NCBI GenBank assembly: GCA_963769935.1
Contig: CAVYNY010000010.1
Location: 128,001-192,000 of the forward strand
Source of the DNA: an uncultured delta proteobacterium
GTDB taxonomy: Bacteria > Desulfobacterota > Desulfobacteria > Desulfobacterales > JAFDCJ01
DNA: 64,000 nt
Direction: 5' to 3'
Positions 28,704 through 52,482 of the stretch are shown here, one piece after another. Both the position numbers and the translations under genes were made by a program. The notes under the pieces are model-generated. The model made no database searches and was not told the origin of the DNA. It saw nothing but the letters and a program-made list of their open reading frames with translations. The number at the start of each line of letters is the position of its first letter. Position 1 is the stretch's first letter.

Positions 28704-30173
28704 ATGGGCAAACCGACAGGATTCAAGGAATACGACCGGGAGCTTCCCGCAAAACGGCCCGTGCAAGAGCGGATAAAGGATTTTAAGGAAATCTATCTGC
28801 CCTTTCCAACGGAAAATCTCAAAAAACAGGCGGCCCGCTGCATGGATTGCGGCGTGCCGACCTGCCATGCCGGCTGCCCCTTGGGCAATCTGATACCGGA
28901 CTGGAACGATTTCGTCTATTACGACCGCTGGCGCGATGCGCTTGGGCTGCTTTTGCTGACCAACAATTTTCCGGAAGTTACCGGCCGGCTCTGTCCGGCG
29001 CCCTGTGAGGAAGCCTGTGTTCTGGGCATCAATGAACCGCCGGTGACCATCGAGCAGATTGAAAAGGATATCATTGAACATGCCTTTGAGCAGGGCTGGA
29101 TTCAACCTGAGCCGCCGGAAAAACGAACCGGAAAAACGGTGGCGGTGATCGGGTCGGGCCCTGCGGGTCTGGCGTGCGCGCAGCAACTGAACCGCGCCGG
29201 GCACACCGTAACCGTATACGAGCGCGCCGACCGCATCGGCGGGCTTCTCAGATACGGAATTCCGGATTTCAAGCTGGAAAAACGGGTGCTGGACCGGCGC
29301 CTGGAACTTATGCGCCAGGAAGGTATTTGCTTTGAGGCCGGGGTCAATGCCGGGGTGGACCTGACACCGGAAGATCTCAATGGATTTGATGCCACCGTGA
29401 TTTGTACCGGGGCGACAATTCCCCGTGACCTGCCGATACCCGGACGCAACCTCAAAGGAATCCATTTTGCCATGGATTTTTTAGCCCGCCAGAACCGTTT
29501 AATCGCCGGGGACAGCCTCGCGCGGCTGAATGTCGATTTGATTTCCGCCGCCGACAAACATGTGGTGGTTATCGGCGGCGGCGACACCGGCAGCGACTGC
29601 ATCGGTACCTGCATTCGCCAGAAGGCCAAATCCGTGACCAATTTCGAGCTTTTTCCGAAACCCCCCGAGAATCGACCGGAAAGGCAACCCTGGCCTTTCT
29701 GGCCCGTCAGGATGCGCTCCAGTGCTTCCCATGAAGAGGGCTGCCGCCGGCAGTGGGGAATATCAACCAAAGCGTTTATCGGTAAGGCGGATAAAATCGC
29801 TAAACTGGCAACAATTGATGTTGAATTTGTAATCGACGGCCAAGGGCGCACCACGATGCGGGAAGTGGCCGGCTCAGAACGCGAATGGCAGGCCGACCTG
29901 GTGCTGCTCGCCTTAGGTTTCACAGGACCGGAGTCCAATACGATTGTCAGCGCCTGCAATCTGGACCTGGATGAACGCAGCAGCATTCAAATCGACAGCA
30001 ACTACATGACGAATAAACCGGGTATTTTTGCAGCCGGCGATGCCCAACGGGGCCAGTCTCTGATTGTGTGGGCCATTTCCGAAGGGCGTGAGGCGGCGCG
30101 CTGTGTGGATGCCTACTTAATGGGGGCTTCGGCCCTGCCCGCCAAAGGCGGTGGGGATTTACCCAGAATTTAA
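28704..30173 (+). CDS. gltD: Glutamate synthase small subunit
   Basis: Start MGKPTGF; RCMDCGVPTCHAGCP, GSGPAGL, GGGDTGSDC, RGQSLIVWAI. Confidence 0.97.
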   Translation: MGKPTGFKEYDRELPAKRPVQERIKDFKEIYLPFPTENLKKQAARCMDCGVPTCHAGCPLGNLIPDWNDFVYYDRWRDALGLLLLTNNFPEVTGRLCPAPCEEACVLGINEPPVTIEQIEKDIIEHAFEQGWIQPEPPEKRTGKTVAVIGSGPAGLACAQQLNRAGHTVTVYERADRIGGLLRYGIPDFKLEKRVLDRRLELMRQEGICFEAGVNAGVDLTPEDLNGFDATVICTGATIPRDLPIPGRNLKGIHFAMDFLARQNRLIAGDSLARLNVDLISAADKHVVVIGGGDTGSDCIGTCIRQKAKSVTNFELFPKPPENRPERQPWPFWPVRMRSSASHEEGCRRQWGISTKAFIGKADKIAKLATIDVEFVIDGQGRTTMREVAGSEREWQADLVLLALGFTGPESNTIVSACNLDLDERSSIQIDSNYMTNKPGIFAAGDAQRGQSLIVWAISEGREAARCVDAYLMGASALPAKGGGDLPRI

Positions 30174-30264
30174 AGTATGCGGGTTCACCTTTCAGGGCTC
30201 AAAAGGTAAAAAAAGCTTTCGAATGAGGCTCCGTCTCGCGGAAAAGCGAACGGCAGAATTTCAA

Positions 30265-33200
30265 ATGATGAATGGCAACCAATCCAATAATGGCGGACTG
30301 AGCTGTCCCTCATGCCGGCACAGGAACCCCGGGGAAGCCAAATTCTGTCAGCAGTGCGGACGGCAACTCCAGCGCATCTGCGCCGGCTGCCAAACTGAAA
30401 TTTCACCGGATGCCAAGTTCTGCCACCGCTGCGGCCGCCCGACCGGCAATGCCGTCGGTCGCAGCCCGGCAAACCGTGCCTATACACCCCAGTATCTGGC
30501 CGACAAGATCCTGACCTCCCGCAGCGCGTTGGAGGGTGAACGCAAACAGGTAACCGTTCTTTTTGCGGATATCAAGGGATCCATGCAGTTGGCCGAGCAG
30601 GTCGATCCCGAAGACTGGCACGGCATTCTGGATGAATTCTTCCAAATACTGGCGGCCGGCATTCATCGTTTTGAAGGCACGATCAACCAGTACACCGGTG
30701 ACGGCATCATGGCTCTTTTCGGCGCGCCCATCGCTCACGAAGATCATGCTTTGCGCGCCTGTTATGCCGCCCTTTATTTGCAAAGGATGCTGCGAAATCA
30801 TGCCGATCAGCTGCGGGTAAAGCGGGGGCTTAATTTCGGCGTGCGCATGGGGTTAAACTCCGGAGAAGTCGTGGTAGGCAGAATCGGAGACGATCTGCGT
30901 ATGGACTATACCGCCCAGGGCCAGACAGTTGGGTTGGCGGCCCGCATGGAGCAGCTCGCCGAGTCCGGTTGCGTCTATGTTACCGAGCACACTAAGACAC
31001 TCATCGAGGGCTTCTTCAAATTACGTGATCTTGGAATGTCTTCCATCAAGGGCGTGACGCAACCGGTGCGAATATATGCACTGGAAGGAATCCGAGAAGA
31101 TCGAACTCGCCTGGATATCTCCCAGGAGCGGGGTTTTTCCCGCTTTATCGGACGCGGCAATGAAATGGCCGTTCTTCAATCCGCTTATCTGCGCGCCTTA
31201 AATAACAAGGGCAACGTGGTCGGCATCGTCGGTGAGCCGGGTGTCGGTAAAAGCCGGCTGTGCTATGAATTTCTAGAACTCAACCGCAAATCGGATGTTA
31301 CCATTTGTGAAACGAGTTGCGCCTCTCACATTAAAACCGTCCCTTTACTGCCCGTCTTGCAGCTGCTGCGAAGCTTCTTTGGCATCAACTCCCAGGAGCG
31401 TGAAGAGGACGCCCGTAAAAAAATTGCCGGCACATTGATTTTGCTGGACGACGCCTTTAAAGATACGCTGTCGCTCTGGTTTGACTTCCTGGCGGTCGCC
31501 GATCGTAAACAGCCGGCAATCAGGGTAAATGGGGAAGAACGCCAACGGAAACTATTCGCCCTGATCCAGCGTCTGATCCAGACGATGTCCAAACGGGAGC
31601 CTCTGATTATTCTGGTTGAAGATCTTCACTGGATCGACCCCTCAAGCGATTCCTTCGTTGCCCGTCTGGTTGACGCCGTAACCGATACCAGAACTTTGCT
31701 GCTGCTGAACTTCCGCCCCGAGTATCGCCGGGAATGGATGAACCGATCCATTTACCGGCGTCTTCCAATTCCGGCCCTTGACACTGCGGCCTCCAAGGCG
31801 ATGTTGGAAGACCTCCTCGGCAGCGATCCGTCGCTGAAAAATCTGACACCCAGACTCGCTTCACGTGCGCTCGGCAACCCCTACTTCATCGAGGAGCTGG
31901 TTCGGTCGCTGGTGGAAGCCGGCAATCTTGCCGGCCGGCGCAGTGCTTATCGTCTGGTGAAACCCTTAAAATCTCAAACGCTGCCCCGTACGGTTCAGGC
32001 CGTTCTGACGGCGCGCATCGACCGCTTAGGAGAAGCGGCCAAACAGGTTCTTCAAACGGCCTCGGTCATCGGCCAGGAGTTTGAAGCCGTGATCCTGCGC
32101 CAGGTGGTGGATTTATCCGGAACAGAGCTGGACGCTTGCCAACATGCGCTGCAGGAGGTTGAATTCTTTTATCAGAAGGTTTTTTATCCGGAGCCGATTT
32201 ATGCTTTCAAACACCCCATTGTGAGGGAAGTCGCCTATCATTCGCTGCTCACCAAAGCACGCGCCAGGCTCCACCGCCGCATAGTTCGGGCCATTGAAAT
32301 CACTTATCCGGACCGCCAGGATGAACTTGCCGGGCTGGTGGCATACCACTGGGAAAAGGCGGGTAAACCACTCAAGGCCGCTCGCCGGCATCGGCGCGCT
32401 GCGCATGCATCCGGTTTTGCCGAGGTTCAGCGGACATTCTTCCATTGGAGCCAAGCCCTAAGGCTGACTCAACTGGCGCCGGCCGTTGAGGAAGCGCAGC
32501 GATTGCAGCTGGAGGCCTGCTGCGGAGCCCTTGACATCGGCGGCCGGGTCGATATTTCTCCCAAGCAAGTCCGGGAAATCTTTGAGGAAGGCCGTAAGCT
32601 GGCCGAAAGATTTGGTGATCCCCGCTCTCTTTTGCGCCTGCATGAAGACCTGGCCGCGCGACTCGGGTGGTCGGGCGACCTCGCAGGTCAGAGACGATAT
32701 CTCAAGGAGGCCACGATTATCGCTGAATCGGTTCCTGACCCTGAAATTAAACTGGGTCTTCTGCAACGCCGTTATGTTGCGGAGTTCCACCAGGGCGATT
32801 TAAGGTCGGCCTTGAGCATGACGGAGGAAGGCATCGCCGGCTGTGAAGCCGCAGCGTCCGCCCTGCCGAATCCGGTTTTCAGTCGTCTTTTGCGCTCTTT
32901 TCTGCTCGCACGAGCAAATGTCCTATCAATGACGGGCGAACTTGAGCAGGCCGGAGCACTCATAGATCAAGCGGCGCATCTCATGCCGCCGGCCGACAAA
33001 TCTAAACCGGACTCACGCACAACCCATACCGAAGCGCTGATTCGCGCCAACCTCTCGATCTATATCGGTGATATCGATGCCTGCTTGCGTGATGGGCGCG
33101 TTTTCGTAGAACTTGCAGAACGCTCAGGCTCTACCTGGGCCATTGCCGTTTCGGCTTCAACCCTCGGAAGAGCGCACCTGGTGGGGCAGCATTGGCCGCA

Positions 33201-33669
33201 AGCCCGGGAGTCACTCGAATACGCGCTGGCGCAGGCCCGGCAGCACAAGCTCGGACTGGAGGCGGAAGCCTCCTATCTGGCCTTTTTAGCCGAGGCTCTG
33301 GCGGGCTGCGGTGAGCTGGAGCAGGCGCTTGAAACCGCCGAGGAGGCGATCGCCGTGGCTCGCCGCAAGGGAACCCGATTCTGGGAGCTCCAGGCCCAAA
33401 CAGCTTTGGCAACCGTTCTTTTGCGCCGGTATCGAGCGGAGGATCGGAATCGCATTGCAGAAACCCTGGATCTGGCCGACGAACTGATTGAAAAAACCGG
33501 AGGGAAGGTAATGAGGCCGTTGATAGCCCTGCGGCGTGCTGAATTATCTGAACTGACGGGTGATAAAGCCGGCTATCTGCAATTGATTCAAAAGGCTTTC
33601 GACCTGTGCACTTCCATGGCCGCCCACGGATACGCCCAACGGCTGGCGGCCAAACTCAGAGCAGTTTGA
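30265..33669 (+). CDS. Double zinc ribbon + class III nucleotide cyclase + STAND/AAA ATPase + TPR protein (start uncertain)
   Basis: Four CxxC pairs; VLFADIKGS, GDGIMALFG; GEPGVGKS, VEDLHWID, GNPYF; helical C-terminus. Confidence 0.9.
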   Translation: MMNGNQSNNGGLSCPSCRHRNPGEAKFCQQCGRQLQRICAGCQTEISPDAKFCHRCGRPTGNAVGRSPANRAYTPQYLADKILTSRSALEGERKQVTVLFADIKGSMQLAEQVDPEDWHGILDEFFQILAAGIHRFEGTINQYTGDGIMALFGAPIAHEDHALRACYAALYLQRMLRNHADQLRVKRGLNFGVRMGLNSGEVVVGRIGDDLRMDYTAQGQTVGLAARMEQLAESGCVYVTEHTKTLIEGFFKLRDLGMSSIKGVTQPVRIYALEGIREDRTRLDISQERGFSRFIGRGNEMAVLQSAYLRALNNKGNVVGIVGEPGVGKSRLCYEFLELNRKSDVTICETSCASHIKTVPLLPVLQLLRSFFGINSQEREEDARKKIAGTLILLDDAFKDTLSLWFDFLAVADRKQPAIRVNGEERQRKLFALIQRLIQTMSKREPLIILVEDLHWIDPSSDSFVARLVDAVTDTRTLLLLNFRPEYRREWMNRSIYRRLPIPALDTAASKAMLEDLLGSDPSLKNLTPRLASRALGNPYFIEELVRSLVEAGNLAGRRSAYRLVKPLKSQTLPRTVQAVLTARIDRLGEAAKQVLQTASVIGQEFEAVILRQVVDLSGTELDACQHALQEVEFFYQKVFYPEPIYAFKHPIVREVAYHSLLTKARARLHRRIVRAIEITYPDRQDELAGLVAYHWEKAGKPLKAARRHRRAAHASGFAEVQRTFFHWSQALRLTQLAPAVEEAQRLQLEACCGALDIGGRVDISPKQVREIFEEGRKLAERFGDPRSLLRLHEDLAARLGWSGDLAGQRRYLKEATIIAESVPDPEIKLGLLQRRYVAEFHQGDLRSALSMTEEGIAGCEAAASALPNPVFSRLLRSFLLARANVLSMTGELEQAGALIDQAAHLMPPADKSKPDSRTTHTEALIRANLSIYIGDIDACLRDGRVFVELAERSGSTWAIAVSASTLGRAHLVGQHWPQARESLEYALAQARQHKLGLEAEASYLAFLAEALAGCGELEQALETAEEAIAVARRKGTRFWELQAQTALATVLLRRYRAEDRNRIAETLDLADELIEKTGGKVMRPLIALRRAELSELTGDKAGYLQLIQKAFDLCTSMAAHGYAQRLAAKLRAV

Positions 33670-33677
33670 ACCCCGAG

Positions 33678-34424
33678 CTAAGTTTCCTGATCAACAAAGA
33701 TATCCACACTCAGGACAGCCTCGCCCTTTTCAAAGTCAGCATCCAAATGATACCGCAAATACTTAACTTTAATTCTGAGAATCTTTTCATTGGTATCGTC
33801 AAAATTAATTTCGATGGTCGTTCCTATAGCAATGGCGGCATTGTTTCTAAGCTGATAATCGTAGACGAGCTTGTGTTCATCGGCTGAGTTTGAATTAGGC
33901 GGACCGAGGAGAGCGGCTATCTCTGATCTATCAGGCAACAAGGTTCGATCTAATGTCCGGATGTCAATTTTAATCTGCCGTTTGACCAGACTCTTTTCCG
34001 ACTTGCAGACCGACTGCATAATCTGAGTCAGCAATTTTCCGGTGAGGATATGCGTCAGGTTTTTGCTTAGATACCCCTCTTTCAAGCGATACTCCCCATC
34101 GAGGCGGACAAATCGCAATTCGATTGGCAGATCGTATTGCCCATCGGGTTTGGCCCATTTCCTTTCAGCATAGTAAGTCATGACGAGCTCATCACCGACG
34201 AACTTTTGTTCGGATGGCTCCGCACCGGCCAGCCAGGTAATATCTTCATCCAGCATGACCGGTTCCCGCAGGACGACACGAAATCCTTCCGATAATTCAA
34301 TCTGAAAATTCTTGTCAAAGTCACACAGCTGGTTTTTGACCCTGAATATTCTTTCGAGGATACACCCGTTAAGGATTAAGACTGCCGATAGCAATAAAGC
34401 AAATGTTTTAGGCCGGTAAAACAT
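33678..34424 (-). CDS. Hypothetical lipoprotein
   Basis: LNGC lipobox; EIAALLGPP (SmpA/BamE-like) segment. Confidence 0.7.
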   Translation of the reverse strand: MFYRPKTFALLLSAVLILNGCILERIFRVKNQLCDFDKNFQIELSEGFRVVLREPVMLDEDITWLAGAEPSEQKFVGDELVMTYYAERKWAKPDGQYDLPIELRFVRLDGEYRLKEGYLSKNLTHILTGKLLTQIMQSVCKSEKSLVKRQIKIDIRTLDRTLLPDRSEIAALLGPPNSNSADEHKLVYDYQLRNNAAIAIGTTIEINFDDTNEKILRIKVKYLRYHLDADFEKGEAVLSVDIFVDQET

Positions 34425-34536
34425 GATGAAAAACCTCAAAGACCGCAAATGAAATTATAAGCCCCGCTGGCCTTTGGAGTCAACCTATTGCCGGCAATCG
34501 AAAATGCCTGAAGATTGATCGAGTATTTTCGAAGTG

Positions 34537-34570
34537 AAAAATACAAAGAGGGCACCATCCGGTGCCCCCT
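34537..34570 (-). terminator. Intrinsic terminator of the Gly/Gln-rich gene
   Basis: Minus strand AGGGGGCACC-GGAT-GGTGCCCTCT followed by TTGTATTTTT. Confidence 0.75.
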
Positions 34571-35276: not shown

Positions 35277-35395
35277 ACATCCTCCTGTATCTGATTTTAA
35301 TTGGTTTCCATCCGATGCTCAACGAATGGCCGAGATTCTGCCTGCAATAACCTGCACCTCTGCACCCGGGCGCGACTCCCAGCACGGTTTGACAA

Positions 35396-35428
35396 TTAAA
35401 CGGATAAGCGGCCAGAAGGTTACAAATT
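35396..35428 (-). promoter_or_regulatory. ECF-type promoter, copy 1
   Basis: AATTTGTAACCTT-N13-CGTTTAA, same boxes and spacing as the copy at 38078. Confidence 0.75.
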
Positions 35429-35576
35429 TTTTAACATTATTTTTAGAAATGCTAAAAATATGGGGAAAAAGAGAAGGAGTTGTCTGATTAAAAATTCAAT
35501 TGAGTCAACAATCAAGAATTATTGCATTATTATATACATAAATTGGGCCACCCAGCTTAGTGGCCAGAATTTATTC

Positions 35577-36551
35577 TTATTTGTTACCACCGCCGCCGCC
35601 GCCGGGACCGCCACCACCACCGGGACCACCGGAACCGCTGCCACCGGAACCACCGCCGCTGCCACCTCCAGAGCCACCGCTTCCTCCACTGCCTCCACCG
35701 GCACCCATCCCGCCCGGACCCGAGGCGCCGGCATTCCCGCCGGAGCTCCCGGAGGAACCTGCCTGTAACCCTCTGCCTTCATGGATGGCAGCGGTGAAGC
35801 CGCGGGCCAGGTTCTGAGGCTCGGACTGCCGCGCCTGGGTAACAAACGAGTTGTGCAGGGCCTGCATGTCTTCATGGTTGAAGCCTTTGGCCAGGGCTGT
35901 GGTGACCATGCCTGTGACGGCCTGGGATGAGACGCCCAGGCGCGAGGCGTCCCTCGCGGTCTGATAACACGCGAGCGCCAGACTGTAGGCCTGGTCGGAG
36001 TTCATGGAGCCTGCACGCTGCTGAACCATTTCCGTGATCTTGTCGGCGTCATCTCTGGACAGACCGGCTGCCAGGCCGGCGGCCAGCGTGCGACCAAGGT
36101 TTTGCGCACGGCTTTTCTGACTGGTAAGCTGCGCCGCACGCTGAAAGGCGAACGAATCTCGAGACTCGACCGTTTGCATGGCGCTGACGATCAGGGGCGT
36201 AGGCACGTTTTTGGCCATGCCTTCGAAGGCCTTGTTAATCAGCGGCTCTACGGGTATACCGCTGTTATGGGCCTCGATCATCAGTGTGTGGGCCATTTGG
36301 ATCTGGCGTTCGTCAAAGTTGTGCTGCAGCATGGCATGGGTGAGCTTGACCACGCTCGCCGCTTCCAAACCGCTTTTAACCGCCTGCCGGGTGCTGGCCT
36401 TGACCGCCGCGGGCGTATTTGCCGGCAAACTGTCGTCTATCGCATCTGCCAGGGCAGCACCCGCAAACAGCAGCACCAGAATCATCGAACCCAGCGCAAC
36501 CAACCCAACGGTCCGGTATCTAATTTTTAATTTTGGTATCAAATCTTTCAT
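35577..36551 (-). CDS. Exported helical protein with Gly/Ser-rich C-terminal tail
   Basis: Signal peptide ending ALA-D; Ala-rich helical body (GIPVEPLINKAFEGMAK); ~60-aa Gly tail; likely start MKDLIPK at 36551. Confidence 0.8.
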   Translation of the reverse strand: MKDLIPKLKIRYRTVGLVALGSMILVLLFAGAALADAIDDSLPANTPAAVKASTRQAVKSGLEAASVVKLTHAMLQHNFDERQIQMAHTLMIEAHNSGIPVEPLINKAFEGMAKNVPTPLIVSAMQTVESRDSFAFQRAAQLTSQKSRAQNLGRTLAAGLAAGLSRDDADKITEMVQQRAGSMNSDQAYSLALACYQTARDASRLGVSSQAVTGMVTTALAKGFNHEDMQALHNSFVTQARQSEPQNLARGFTAAIHEGRGLQAGSSGSSGGNAGASGPGGMGAGGGSGGSGGSGGGSGGGSGGSGSGGPGGGGGPGGGGGGNK

Positions 36552-36588
36552 TGCTGAAAGTTCCTTTAAACCTAAAAATTTTAAAATA

Positions 36589-36695
36589 GGACACGGATTT
36601 ATACGGAGCTTCATAAATTTTTAACAAATTTTTGGTTTTTCTAAAATGTTGTCGAAGACAATAAATATCCGTGTCATCTGCTTTCATCCGTGTCC
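36589..36695. repeat. Inverted-repeat-bounded intergenic element (GGACACGGAT / ATCCGTGTCC)
   Basis: 10-bp perfect inverted repeat; related left ends near 49991 and 60286. Confidence 0.55.
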
Positions 36696-36716
36696 CCCTT
36701 AAAATTCAGACATTTA

Positions 36717-37043
36717 CTATTCCGGAACATACACACAGTTGCGAGAGCCAAAATCATCCTTTTCGGAAAACTTACAATCGGGCACATACACTGCCCCGTC
36801 CACGATGTAAAAATACCGGAATTCAGAACCGGCCGTCACGCTGACCACCCAGCGTGAGTCGTCTGCTTTGCCGGCCAGGTGCGGGCTGTAAGCATCCAGC
36901 GAGGAAGCGAACGCCACCCCCTGTGCCCCGGGCGCCCTGAGATAGAAGGTCACCCGGTCTGACTGCCGTTCGTAATAATGGGTTGCGGCGCACCCTTCAA
37001 GACCAAAGGCGGCAACCGTCAAAAGCAGAAACAGAATTTTCAC
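36717..37043 (-). CDS. Lipoprotein with AMPK-beta/CBM48-like (glycogen-binding type) domain
   Basis: LEGC lipobox; VTFYLRAPGA...RYFYIVDG...EKDDFGSRN; GTG start overlapping the upstream TGA. Confidence 0.8.
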   Translation of the reverse strand: MKILFLLLTVAAFGLEGCAATHYYERQSDRVTFYLRAPGAQGVAFASSLDAYSPHLAGKADDSRWVVSVTAGSEFRYFYIVDGAVYVPDCKFSEKDDFGSRNCVYVPE

Positions 37044-37597
37044 GTTCTCATGTTCACGGCCAGAATTGAGTTCTCGCCGCCGAAATCATCCTTTTCGCGA
37101 ATAGGTATGGTCGGGTCGGGGATCCGTTTATGTCCATCGATGATGTAGCAAAGCCGGTGCTCGCCGGGCGGTACGTCGAGAACCGTCTCCCAGTAACCGC
37201 TGCCGGTTCTTTGCATGGGTACAGCTTTCCAGCCAAGAAAGCTGCCGGTGATTTCCACCTCCTTCACATGCGGTTGATACAGGACAAAGCGGTACTTCGT
37301 CGGCACGGGCAGTTCCCGCTGTGGCGTTGCGAAAAACATAACCAGCAGGGCGGCCGCCAACCCGGCGGCAAACATGCCGGCCGGGCGCCACAGCGCGATC
37401 GAAAACCGGCGTTTTTCACGAAACACGACAGCCGGCACACGGTCGACCACTTCGCCGCGCACCCGCTTTTCCTGGTGCAGCAGATCCACGGCCTCGTCTT
37501 TAAAATGCGCATGGACATGTACGGTTTCGACAAACTCGATCTTCTCGTCCAGGTCCAGCTCGTCGTCGATATAGCTGCTTATCAGATAATCCCTCAT
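37040..37597 (-). CDS. Putative anti-sigma factor: N-terminal ASD-like domain, one TM helix, C-terminal CBM48-like domain
   Basis: LISSYIDDELD start; TM AAGLAAALLVMFF; VEITGSFLGW...W...PPGEH...IIDG...PDP...DDFGGENS; ATGA overlap with the sigma gene. Confidence 0.85.
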   Translation of the reverse strand: MRDYLISSYIDDELDLDEKIEFVETVHVHAHFKDEAVDLLHQEKRVRGEVVDRVPAVVFREKRRFSIALWRPAGMFAAGLAAALLVMFFATPQRELPVPTKYRFVLYQPHVKEVEITGSFLGWKAVPMQRTGSGYWETVLDVPPGEHRLCYIIDGHKRIPDPTIPIREKDDFGGENSILAVNMRT

Positions 37598-38061
37598 TTT
37601 TCACCTGTATTCATCATTTTTCTCAGTTTCACCCGGGCGCGGTGAACCCGGACCTTGACATTGCTCTCGCTCGTATTGGTTATCCGGGCGATTTCCCGGT
37701 AGGAAAGATCCCGACTGACCACCAGCGAAAGAACCTCCCGCTCTTCCGGCTCCAGTTCCTGCAGGGCCGCCAGCACCCGCCGGTAGTCTTCGCGCACCAT
37801 CAGGTGCGCTTCCGGGTTGGGCTGGGAATGTTCCGGCTCGTCATAAAGTTGGCTATCACGCCCCTGTTTGCGATGCCCGTCGACCACGGCATTACGGGCG
37901 ATGGCATACAACAAGGCCGGGTTTTGACCCTTTTCACCGTATTTTTCCAGATACCGCGTAAAGCTCTCCTGCAGGATGTCGCTCGAAAGGTGGTAATCCC
38001 CGGTGCTCCTCATCAGGTATGCAAAAAGCCGGTCCCGGTGCTTTCTATAAAATTCCCTCAA
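37594..38061 (-). CDS. ECF RNA polymerase sigma factor (start uncertain, TTG)
   Basis: Region 2 (DILQESF, LYAIARNAVVD) and region 4 (LSYREIA, VKVRVHRAR) only; 155 aa. Confidence 0.92.
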   Translation of the reverse strand: MREFYRKHRDRLFAYLMRSTGDYHLSSDILQESFTRYLEKYGEKGQNPALLYAIARNAVVDGHRKQGRDSQLYDEPEHSQPNPEAHLMVREDYRRVLAALQELEPEEREVLSLVVSRDLSYREIARITNTSESNVKVRVHRARVKLRKMMNTGEK

Positions 38062-38077
38062 ATTCGCACTCTTCTAT

Positions 38078-38110
38078 TTAAACGAACTACGGGTTAAAAG
38101 GTTACAAATT
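38078..38110 (-). promoter_or_regulatory. ECF-type promoter, copy 2 (probably autoregulatory)
   Basis: AATTTGTAACCTT-N13-CGTTTAA immediately upstream of the sigma gene. Confidence 0.75.
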
Positions 38111-38116
38111 CGATCT

Positions 38117-38302
38117 TTATTTATACACCCGCTGATAAATTTCACACTCTCTAAAATTCCGCAGGCAGTATTTGACGGCATAGGGTATTTTCATGCTGGT
38201 CATGTCGATGCAGTAACAGTTCGGTAGGGGATCATCGAGGATCGGGCACATCTTACCTGCATTGTCAAAACTGTCGAAGGTCTGTCGTGTTAAAACGGCC
38301 AT
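38117..38302 (-). CDS. Small Cys-rich protein (61 aa)
   Basis: GGAGG SD; CP-x8-CYC-x14-C-x6-C pattern. Confidence 0.6.
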   Translation of the reverse strand: MAVLTRQTFDSFDNAGKMCPILDDPLPNCYCIDMTSMKIPYAVKYCLRNFRECEIYQRVYK

Positions 38303-38444
38303 GACAAAATGCCCCTCCGGTGCAGAAACCAAAAAGTTACGCCTCTGTATCTAAGCTGCTGCATTCGTAAGGCGGGGAAAGCAGAGCCCGAAATTGCACT
38401 CAAAAGCTATAACGTGGAAAGATGCCTGAGGTTACAATTGAGGT

Positions 38445-43097: not shown

Positions 43098-43496
43098 TTA
43101 GTGGGTTTGGTGCTGGATTTCCGTTCTCCGCACGAACTCATCAAATCCCTCCTGAATGGCCTGCATGATAACCTCAATTTTGAAGGGTTTTGTGAGATGG
43201 TTGTCAAAACCGGCTTCTTTTAGCTTGTCGATGTCGTACAATTCAGTGTGCCCGGTTAAGGCAATCACAAACGTTTTGTCATCGGTTTCTCGAATCCTCC
43301 GGCAGAATTCGACCCCGTCCATTTCAAGCATGATCAGATCGGTGATGATAACCGGAAACTTATTGCGCTCCAATAAGGAAAAGGCATCTTCGGCGGATTC
43401 AACGGCATCCACTTCGTAGCCCAGTTTGGAGAGAAGTTTCTGCATGAGTTCCCGGTGATAATCTTCATCATCCACCACGAGTATTTTCTTTTCCAT
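43098..43496 (-). CDS. Single-domain response regulator
   Basis: ILVVDDE, ITDLIM, ALTG, KPF. Confidence 0.92.
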   Translation of the reverse strand: MEKKILVVDDEDYHRELMQKLLSKLGYEVDAVESAEDAFSLLERNKFPVIITDLIMLEMDGVEFCRRIRETDDKTFVIALTGHTELYDIDKLKEAGFDNHLTKPFKIEVIMQAIQEGFDEFVRRTEIQHQTH

Positions 43497-43725
43497 GGTA
43501 TGCTCTTCATCTAGATAGGTTTAATACCAGCCATCAGAAGTGTTTCTAAACCCCTAACCTTTCGTTTGAAGTTATAGCAACAACTTCCGACCAGATAATT
43601 TGAACCGCCATCAAAAAAGCAAGGTTACAGGCAGGAAAAGTTATAGGACCGGACCATCATTTGTCTCACAACCATCCGTGGGGTACTATAAGACGACACA
43701 ACTTTAATGTCAATTCAATAAATAC

Positions 43726-50090: not shown

Positions 50091-50450
50091 CTATTTCATC
50101 AAATCCGATTTCATTGTTTCGAATTCAGTTTTATTGATCTCGCCGCGGGCATAGCGCTCCTTGAGAATTTCAAGAGCGCGGTTGCCGCCGGTGCTGCCGG
50201 TTTGACCGCGGTTGGTGGACTGAATCAGCCATTTGATGACAAACACCAGTCCCACCAGAATAAAAATCCAAAATATGATCATAAAAATACCTCCAAACCA
50301 TCCGACACCCCATCCACCCATCATTCCCGGGCCCATTTGCCAGCCCTGATTATTACCCCATTGGGCCAGGGCCGGGTCGGAAGAAAAAAAGGCTATAAAC
50401 GCAAGCGCAGCCATCAGAATTTTTACCTGCACTATTTTACCGGGATTCAT
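50091..50450 (-). CDS. SHOCT-domain membrane protein
   Basis: Signal peptide, GPGMMGGWG, one [16 protein letters not shown]. Confidence 0.85.
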
Positions 50451-50451
50451 G

Positions 50452-51300
50452 TTAATTCTCCTTATTCACCGTGGGATTTTTTTCTGCCGGCGCATTCCGG
50501 GTGTCATGGTATTGCTGGTAGTCATTGCGGTTCATCATACCAGGTCCACTGCCCCGGCCGCCACCAGGACCCATCGGGCCGGGTCCCCAACCGTAGCCGC
50601 CCCAGGGCCGATTCCAGGCCCCATATCCACCAGGGCCCATCATATTGGGGGACATCATGCCCGGACCCATGCCGTAGCCGCCCCAGGAGCGATTCCTGGC
50701 CCCATATCCACCGGGGCCCATCATATTGGGGGACATCATGCCCGGACCCATGCCGTAACCCCCGCCGGGTCCGCTGAGCGGACAGTCGGGTCGGTCCCAG
50801 CCGCCATAGCCCCCCGACCCCATCATGTCATGGTGCATCATGCCGTAACCCATCATCCCGAAACCCATCGGACCGCCCCGGCCGGCATCAGGGTCGATCT
50901 TTTGGACCCGCAGAAAATGTTCCAGGCGCTTTTGCGCCAGCTGGGCCATAAGATCGGATATTTGCTGCTGCACGGCCGCCGCTGCCGCCGCGTCCGGGTT
51001 TTGCTTGGCCAATTCACTGGCCAGCTCGAGCTGTTTCTGGTAAATTTGCTGCCGCAGATCTTTGGTCGCTTCCCAGAATGCATTGCGCTCTTCGTCCAGA
51101 TTCCGGATCTGATCTTCACTTAAATCACCGAACATGCCATAGCCGGCCCCGCCATAGCTCCGCAGATGACGCCCTTGACCGTAATGCATCCTTGCCGGAT
51201 AATCATATCCTTTACCCATCTGGGCAAAGGCGAGGGGTCCCGAACCCAGGAAAAAAATTGCAGCCAGCAAAATAAATGTGTTTTTTGAGCTAATATTCAT
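50452..51300 (-). CDS. Periplasmic ZraP/Spy/CpxP-like protein with long Met/Gly-rich tail
   Basis: Signal peptide ending AFA-Q; LSEDQ...[12 protein letters not shown]...NPD helical core; GMGPGMM repeats. Confidence 0.85.
50591..50752 (-). repeat. 81-bp (27-aa) in-frame tandem duplication
   Basis: Two near-identical units encoding [22 protein letters not shown](R/W)NR(S/P)W. Confidence 0.9.
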
Positions 51301-52290: not shown

Positions 52291-52482
52291 GTTCAGGGTT
52301 CAAAGGTTAAAGGGCTACAAGGTTAAACGTTCAAGGTTTGACCAATCGGCAACCTCACATCAGTAGTTGTTATGAATTATGCATAAAGACATAAATCATC
52401 GTTCATAGATATACAGCGTTTTGTTTATTCGACCCTGTATGGGAGATTAAAAACCAACCATAAAAAAATGCGAAGCATTAAA

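Follow-up and report, generated by a model that had tools for sequence, protein, structure and literature searches.

The ECF group nearest in architecture to the system described here is ECF278s1, in which the +1 gene encodes an anti-sigma factor that has a single transmembrane helix and carries an AMPK glycogen-recognition domain, and for which a promoter with GTGAC (-35) and GTATA (-10) was predicted (Casas-Pastor et al., 2021, PMC7826278). The present locus shares with this group the ECF gene, the single-helix +1 anti-sigma factor with its AMPK glycogen-recognition domain, and deltaproteobacterial hosts. A similar -35 element, TGTAAC or GTAACCTT, was predicted in the same source for ECF231, ECF120, ECF235 and ECF264. 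These four groups differ in their -10 elements, hosts and regulators; according to their published descriptions, ECF231 is found in Bacteroidetes and Acidobacteria, and the regulators in the set are zinc-finger/HEAT anti-sigma factors or a DUF1835 extension (PMC7826278). Assignment of the present sigma factor to ECF278s1, 231, 120, 235 or 264 was considered and rejected, as either the promoter or the anti-sigma factor given in those descriptions differs.

Promoters of Bacillus ECF sigma factors carry a T-tract proximal to the -35 element (PMC5758882). The SigV, SigW, SigM and SigX systems of Bacillus subtilis, as described there, resemble the present one in their AAC-type -35, T-tract and CGT-type -10, and also in autoregulation, a membrane anti-sigma factor and an envelope-directed regulon. 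They differ in the -10 element, which is CGTT here and not CGTA, CGTC or CGAC, and in the anti-sigma factor and targets; the sigma factors are also not closely related in sequence (SigW, E 1e-7). Literature searches, in which most subscription papers were beyond reach, returned no study of this ECF group or its promoter.

The sequence analysed, termed the window, is a stretch of 64,000 nt. A pair of boxes that occurs in it in two exact copies is read as the -35 and -10 elements of a promoter likely recognised by the ECF sigma factor encoded just downstream, which would amplify its own operon from a predicted near-leaderless transcript and activate a small number of genes whose products are likely exported; the rough probability of this reading is put at 80%. 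The basic finding is ordinary, since autoregulatory ECF promoters are routinely read from sequence. What is added is a precise predicted promoter, with a start site and a small set of targets, for an ECF group that matches none of the group descriptions consulted and occurs in 110 of the 401 genomes sampled from the order.

The locus and its promoter motif

The initial annotation had read an ECF target promoter from two exact copies and one weaker copy of a motif. All three sites are present where they had been placed, with the spacing and the weaker copy as described; the strand, left unstated there, is the minus strand, and one further site (P3, Table 1) had been missed. P1 and P2 are exact matches to TGTAACCTT-N13-CGTTTAA, each preceded by AATT and with unrelated spacers, and the site at 43601-43629 on the same strand has two mismatches. 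With up to 3 mismatches allowed, five motif matches were found in the window, compared with a shuffle mean of 0.28, and at least five were reached in 0 of 100 shuffles. A site at 52299-52327 (8.3 bits) was put down to chance. The genome-wide scan that had been proposed as a check yielded no exact copies other than P1 and P2 in 7.99 Mb with spacers of 9 to 18, a count that is partly circular because the motif was derived from those two copies, so that the weight of the argument falls on the relatives. The motif is best written as TGTAAC-N16-CGTT with a T-tract 3' of the -35 box, and reads as a standard-type ECF promoter. It is non-palindromic, consisting of two boxes at a fixed spacing followed by a start signature.

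Table 1. Features of the sigma locus and predicted promoters in the window
Feature	Coordinates	Strand	Remarks
P3, third predicted promoter	38408..38436	-	3 mismatches; 21.0 bits; absent from the initial annotation
61-aa ORF, CPxL..CYC..C..C pattern	38117..38302	-	no Pfam match
P1, predicted autoregulatory ECF promoter	38078..38106	-	orthologous sites in relatives; 29.6 bits
P1 boxes (predicted)	-35 TGTAAC 38106-38101; -10 CGTT 38084-38081	-	T-tract between the boxes
Minimal ECF sigma factor	37594..38069	-	regions 2 and 4 only
Predicted anti-sigma factor, 185 aa	37040..37597	-	short N-terminal domain, hydrophobic helix, C-terminal AMPK1_CBM/CBM48
Probable lipoprotein, 108 aa	36717..37043	-	weakly similar to the anti-sigma CBM domain (tblastn cross-match)
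p345, likely exported all-helical repeat protein, Gly-rich tail	35577..36551	-	
Terminator-like hairpin ending the sigma operon ahead of P2	35546..35565	-	consensus match only
P2, predicted promoter of the Gly/Gln-rich gene	35396..35424	-	5/5 relatives; 25.4 bits
Gly/Gln-rich low-complexity protein, 225 aa	34599..35276	-	61 G, 29 Q
Terminator-like hairpin after the Gly/Gln-rich gene	34547..34570	-	consensus match only

The sigma protein matched the Pfam models for region 2 and region 4_2 and TIGR02937 above cut-off, region 3 being unlisted, and is classed on these domains as an ECF (group 4) sigma factor. The product of the next gene contains one hydrophobic helix (residues 73-91) and a PF16561 domain (E 1.4e-10); its position and architecture suggest that it binds the sigma factor as an anti-sigma factor. 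The lipoprotein gene adjoins that of the anti-sigma factor in nearly all loci. For p345, the first in-frame ATG lies at 36614 and the likely start at 36551. This protein had no match in Pfam and none among natural PDB structures. Its fold model was confident and all-helical (pLDDT 97.4); a Foldseek search with the model gave no match at E 0.001 or better, and the best Z score, 10.0 (rmsd 3.4, 136 residues aligned), was to designed repeat proteins, which is uninformative on function. The Gly/Gln-rich protein has a signal-peptide-like N-terminus, and the distance to its ATG from the cytosine of CGTT in P2 is 126 nt. P3 sits just past the lutC stop codon and upstream of the small Cys-rich ORF, and transcription from it could read through into the sigma gene.

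Conservation of the promoter motif among relatives

Both P1 and P2 were retained, with differing spacers, in all five close relatives compared. The titles given to close relatives name an uncultured Desulfosarcina, Desulfobacterales or delta proteobacterium. A wider set of 83 orthologous sigma loci was assembled from 81 of the 109 other carriers, picked by score and length of contig, together with 2 further loci. The pattern NGTA[AC]C-N16-C[AG]TT occurred no more than 160 nt upstream of the sigma gene at 75 of these loci and was missing from 8; control spacers (12-15 and 17-20) gave 0-2 matches at the same 83 loci. CGTT was held in all 75 training sites. The pattern had been drawn up after most of the loci were viewed, so that loci held out from other orders and fetched later constitute the cleaner test, and all six of them carried it. 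In all, 32 further loci were fetched, and 16 lacking a sigma match were left out.

The motif also follows the sigma/anti-sigma system across genomes. Of the 401 genomes sampled from the order, 110 gave a match to the anti-sigma factor over its full length (E under 1e-20). The strict form of the pattern was found in 56 of these 110 genomes versus 9 of the 291 others, and in 3 of those 9 the sigma gene or p345 lies on short or broken contigs. With a relaxed pattern, 25/25 chosen carriers were positive, compared with 0/5 genomes having distant ECFs only. A second site downstream of the sigma gene was present in 33 of 50 long loci, compared with 1 when the spacer was shifted as a control. As related genomes are not independent, all of these conservation figures are to be read as counts and not as p-values. 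The original view, that an ECF target promoter is legible from the sequence, is thus borne out by the two exact copies, their fixed spacing and their retention in relatives. That this promoter is autoregulatory and common to the sigma operon and the Gly/Gln-rich gene is likewise supported by conservation, the held-out loci, co-occurrence and the start signature.

Promoter specificity and group membership

Residues D61, K136 and V137 of the sigma factor align with N84, R171 and S172 of Escherichia coli RpoE. In the mutagenesis data of Todor et al. (10.1101/2020.06.23.168245; PMC7776599), Asp favours -13C/-12G and Lys favours -31C (0.98), and the preference of Val for -34T is weak (0.39). By this code, D61 and K136 fit the motif well and V137 fits it weakly. 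The Asp is invariant in 89/89 sigma factors, and Lys or Arg occupies the contact position in 89/89. The genome encodes at least three other ECF-like sigma factors, which limits how exclusively the motif can be assigned.

Weak anti-sigma matches led to ten loci of a second group with a CBM-type anti-sigma factor, whose sigma factors are longer and share about 30% identity with the window's. The recognition helix is mostly GAKMRV in this second group versus NVKVKV or NVKVRV in the window-type group. Promoters of the form GTGAC-N16/17-YGTAT precede 9 of the 10 second-group loci, and there is no cross-over: the window motif occurs at 0/10 of them and the GTGAC type, which is the promoter published for ECF278s1 (GTGAC/GTATA), at 0/83 window-type loci. 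In quick trees a long branch (98-99) set the window's group apart, and its union with the GTGAC-type sigma factors in one clade was not rejected (p-AU 0.558).

Compared with the description of ECF278s1, the window's group has sigma factors of 155-160 aa, the promoter GTAAC-N16-CGTT and a sigma message predicted to be near-leaderless. It also has a conserved lipoprotein and p345, which are unmentioned in the ECF278s1 passage of PMC7826278. Since the ECF278s1 promoter sits in a separate group of loci, the window's sigma factor probably represents an unlisted ECF group, set apart here by comparison with published group descriptions. In its manner of working the system appears to be a switch of the ECF278 type, governed by an anti-sigma factor; its promoter, however, places it outside s1.

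The sugar contacts of AMPK-type CBM48 domains are W100, K126, W133, L146 and N150 (PMC9788615). Among 67 aligned anti-sigma CBM domains, the equivalent of W100 was present in 67 and that of N150 in 65, L146 was replaced by F in 67, the K126 column held S, T, A, C or V in 65, and in the columns around W133 W was outside the five commonest residues. The domain would accordingly depart from the contact set of a glycogen-binding CBM48, and with the K126 and W133 contacts replaced, glycogen sensing by the anti-sigma factor is doubtful.

Predicted start site and leader of the sigma message

At 121 distinct sites upstream of genes other than sigma, a pyrimidine-purine step was located at a distance of 12 nt past the cytosine of CGTT in 87 cases and of 13 nt in 19. 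These positions lay outside the scoring matrix, and the offset of 12-13 nt agrees with the numbering published for ECF promoters. On this basis, the start site of the Gly/Gln-rich gene is predicted at 35390 (a C-A step) and that of the sigma gene (P1) at about 38072-38071.

The sigma gene starts at offset 14-16 in 58 of 75 loci, with GTG in 41 and ATG in 17. With the start step at 12-13, this predicts a near-leaderless sigma mRNA, with about 1-4 nt before the start codon, in those 58 loci. An SD-like word was found at 4 of the 58 sigma starts versus 42 of 53 p345 genes. The remaining 17 of the 75 loci have other leader lengths, and as SD occurs in just 2 of these 17 as well, its absence does not separate the two classes cleanly.

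Translation from GUG starts and from very short leaders is on record, at a weak level in E. coli (PMC4007540). The predicted sigma message resembles the leaderless and short-leader mRNAs of that account in lacking an SD and in placing the start codon at most a few bases from the predicted 5' end. It differs from them in that the arrangement is predicted order-wide for a single regulator gene, and in that the targets of the sigma factor retain leaders and SD. By analogy, the weak translation of such leaders suggests that feedback through P1 is damped.

Predicted targets in the genome and in relatives

A matrix scan of the genome identified five sites of at least 20 bits at the correct spacer, other spacers giving 0-2. 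They are P1, P2, P3, a site on contig C11 preceding an exported-type DUF2202 gene, which is conserved in genome G345, and a site on contig C22 preceding genes for a cytoplasmic receiver protein and rubrerythrin. The C22 site has the top score in the genome; it is missing at the sole orthologous locus detected, in genome G255, which has no full anti-sigma match, and its position ahead of a cytoplasmic protein counts against the preferred reading. Sites also precede homologues of the small Cys-rich ORF in loci L001, L112, L124, L126 and L238, and the gene for the 345-aa p345 protein often has a site of its own in relatives.

Altogether, 178 distinct sites were collected over the loci, assigned, with some labels being mis-picked frames, to sigma (78), p345 (34), Gly/Gln-rich (12), other Gly-rich (11), small Cys-rich (5), DUF2202 (4), anti-sigma (2), receiver (1) and other genes (31). 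The other targets in relatives include di-haem peroxidase, multihaem cytochromes and small exported-type repeat proteins; the multihaem cytochrome has only a weak match in the window's genome. Glycan enzymes were absent from the scanned targets. The claim of the initial annotation that the motif defines the regulon stands as regards a small regulon, the membership of which had been drawn too narrowly: the small Cys-rich ORF, the DUF2202 gene and, in relatives, often p345 also belong to it.

Alternative explanations

The same sigma factor had been proposed to drive the response regulator gene at 43098-43496, which would tie the regulon to phosphorelay and c-di-GMP signalling. The two-mismatch copy has the correct spacing and strand, 111 nt ahead of a gene found in synteny with the sigma locus in 4 close relatives. 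Against this, the site scores 14.2 bits, equalled or beaten at 22 genome positions, and its -10 box is CGGT, without the invariant CGTT. No ECF-like site was found within 300 nt of the orthologous response regulator in any of 4 relatives (best 2.9 bits). All 4 do have a counterpart of a sigma70 promoter, TTGACA-N17-TATAGT, which lies at 43685-43713 in the window and is conserved in all five genomes. The response regulator likely lies outside the targets of this sigma factor, and the proposed phosphorelay link has an exceedingly small chance of being correct. It is also highly unlikely that the motif belongs to a different sigma factor, or to another regulator acting on the locus from outside. 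The other ECFs of the genome, and the similar -35 elements predicted for the unrelated ECF120, 231, 235 and 264 in their published descriptions, would allow for it. The motif, however, tracks the sigma/anti-sigma system over 401 genomes, differs in the group with a different recognition helix and matches the contact residues of the sigma factor, and its two boxes at fixed spacing, its start signature and its lack of a palindrome also argue against an outside regulator.

The promoter may be as described here while the sigma factor is a plain ECF278 member that senses glycogen-like glucans. The one-helix +1 anti-sigma factor with an AMPK glycogen-recognition domain, as in the ECF278s1 description, the joint clade that the trees did not reject, and the retained W100 and N150 equivalents all favour this. 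It nevertheless seems unlikely, given that GTGAC/GTATA is confined to the other group, at about 30% identity, and found at none of the 83 loci of the window's own, that the K126 and W133 contacts fall outside the common residues of the aligned columns, and that the scanned targets are without a glycan enzyme. A different possibility is that the circuit is crippled in this strain, its promoters being relics. The conserved sigma GTG at 38069 is out of frame here, as codon 3 is one base shorter than in relatives, and its frame hits a stop; the open frame starts at a poor TTG at 38061, giving 155 aa and a leader of 10-11 nt without SD. Shortened N-termini were called for 3 of the 9 members of the sigma cluster, the window protein among them, but 6 of the 9 have 158 aa, and the extra base is present in contigs of related populations (two RNA contigs, X12, and one DNA contig, X1). 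These two observations make an assembly error the likely cause of the missing base. Split genes elsewhere also suggest assembly indels, and the remaining operon and all promoters are intact, which makes a crippled circuit quite improbable. No near-identical contig among those examined spans the sigma start, and a metagenome pattern scan over it gave 0 matches.

Proposed mechanism

In the preferred reading, an autoregulated ECF switch, the adjoining membrane protein would keep the sigma factor inactive until a signal from the periplasm arrives at the CBM48-like domain of that protein, with help from the lipoprotein and p345. The freed sigma factor would then fire P1, P2, P3 and the DUF2202 promoter. 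Because the sigma mRNA is predicted to have a leader of about 1-4 nt, mostly GTG starts and usually no SD, positive feedback would be damped, whereas the targets would be translated normally. The expected output consists of Gly-rich exported proteins and the ferritin-like DUF2202 protein, with haem peroxidase or multihaem cytochromes added in relatives. That this output serves periplasmic envelope or redox stress is the weakest step of the mechanism, a tentative suggestion held at somewhat less than even odds.

A more elaborate version, which is unlikely to hold as a whole, depicts a minimal switch in an unclassified, order-wide ECF group, with a near-leaderless gain, a non-glucan periplasmic sensor and insulation from the second CBM-anti-sigma ECF. 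The conserved near-leaderless GUG message would set the feedback gain. The sensor would be composed of a re-purposed CBM48 anti-sigma factor, the CBM-like lipoprotein and the helical repeat protein, and the stimulus could be the circuit's own exported polyglycine products or the periplasmic redox state. Where the two ECFs share a cell, a different -35 box and spacer would provide the insulation.

The analysis thus predicts that a regulator is translated from a near-leaderless message as a conserved trait, and the label of glycogen sensing is placed in doubt. The two types of locus also offer a naturally occurring pair of ECFs that have CBM-type anti-sigma factors but unlike promoters, and this pair could serve as orthogonal switches or to probe the specificity code; two genomes, G147 and G379, possess both systems.

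Genes and promoters around the ECF locus

Two sigma70 promoters lie close to the ECF locus (table below). That of the single-domain response regulator has a counterpart in all four relatives. The other precedes a lipoprotein-like gene whose product has no Pfam match; because of this promoter, the gene seems to fall outside the ECF regulon. The gene for the 1172-aa protein runs convergently towards the ECF locus and is also a neighbour in locus L001. The SHOCT/Metal_resist pair adjoins a multicopper-oxidase-like gene; the pair is Gly-rich, resembling the ECF targets, and has no ECF site of at least 15 bits. The small Cys-rich family, which possibly binds metal, has further members in L005, L088 (tandem duplicates in both), L112, L121, L124, L126 and L238.

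Features of the window near the ECF system and elsewhere
Feature	Position	Strand	Remark
Sigma70 promoter, TTGACA-N17-TATAGT	43685-43713	-	near-consensus; 5' of single-domain response regulator
Sigma70 promoter, TTGACT-N18-TATAAT	34454-34483	-	near-consensus; ahead of lipoprotein-like gene
Lipoprotein-like gene	33678-34448	-	256 aa; behind sigma70 promoter
Double zinc ribbon, adenylate/guanylate cyclase, AAA ATPase, TPR protein	30151-33669	+	1172 aa
SHOCT and Metal_resist (Spy/CpxP-like) proteins	50091-51300	-	latter with GMGPGMM repeats
Small Cys-rich ORF	38117-38302	-	unannotated family, CPxL..CYC..C..C

ECF sites and groups elsewhere

Further low-complexity ECF targets in relatives, likely exported, were found at L062:894-1316, L077:1044-1370, L012:2752-2931, L168:1581-1763, L231 and L233-L236; they include DQDRD/KDGSC repeats, GGGK..GD..QG peptides and GDGTGPIH proteins, and those scanned gave no Pfam match. 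A strong site at L002:7290 (-), oriented away from the sigma gene and with no clear ORF 3' of it, might serve as promoter for an antisense or other small RNA.

A second ECF group with a CBM48 anti-sigma (L185, L188, L196, L197, L199, L200, L203, L204, L214), often adjoined by a p345-like gene, was not seen in the source genome. Its motif, GTGAC-N16/17-YGTAT, agrees with the description of ECF278s1.

The top-scoring ECF site of the whole source genome (G000) lies on contig C22 (L096:5100-6591 region), 280 nt ahead of a gene for a 144-aa receiver protein. The next gene encodes a rubrerythrin whose N-terminus resembles a signal peptide; another rubrerythrin copy is on contig C20. This arrangement is possibly a recent gain. 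At L097:4934-6107, one gene, presumably homoserine acetyltransferase-like, is apparently split over two frames, which suggests indel errors in the source assembly.
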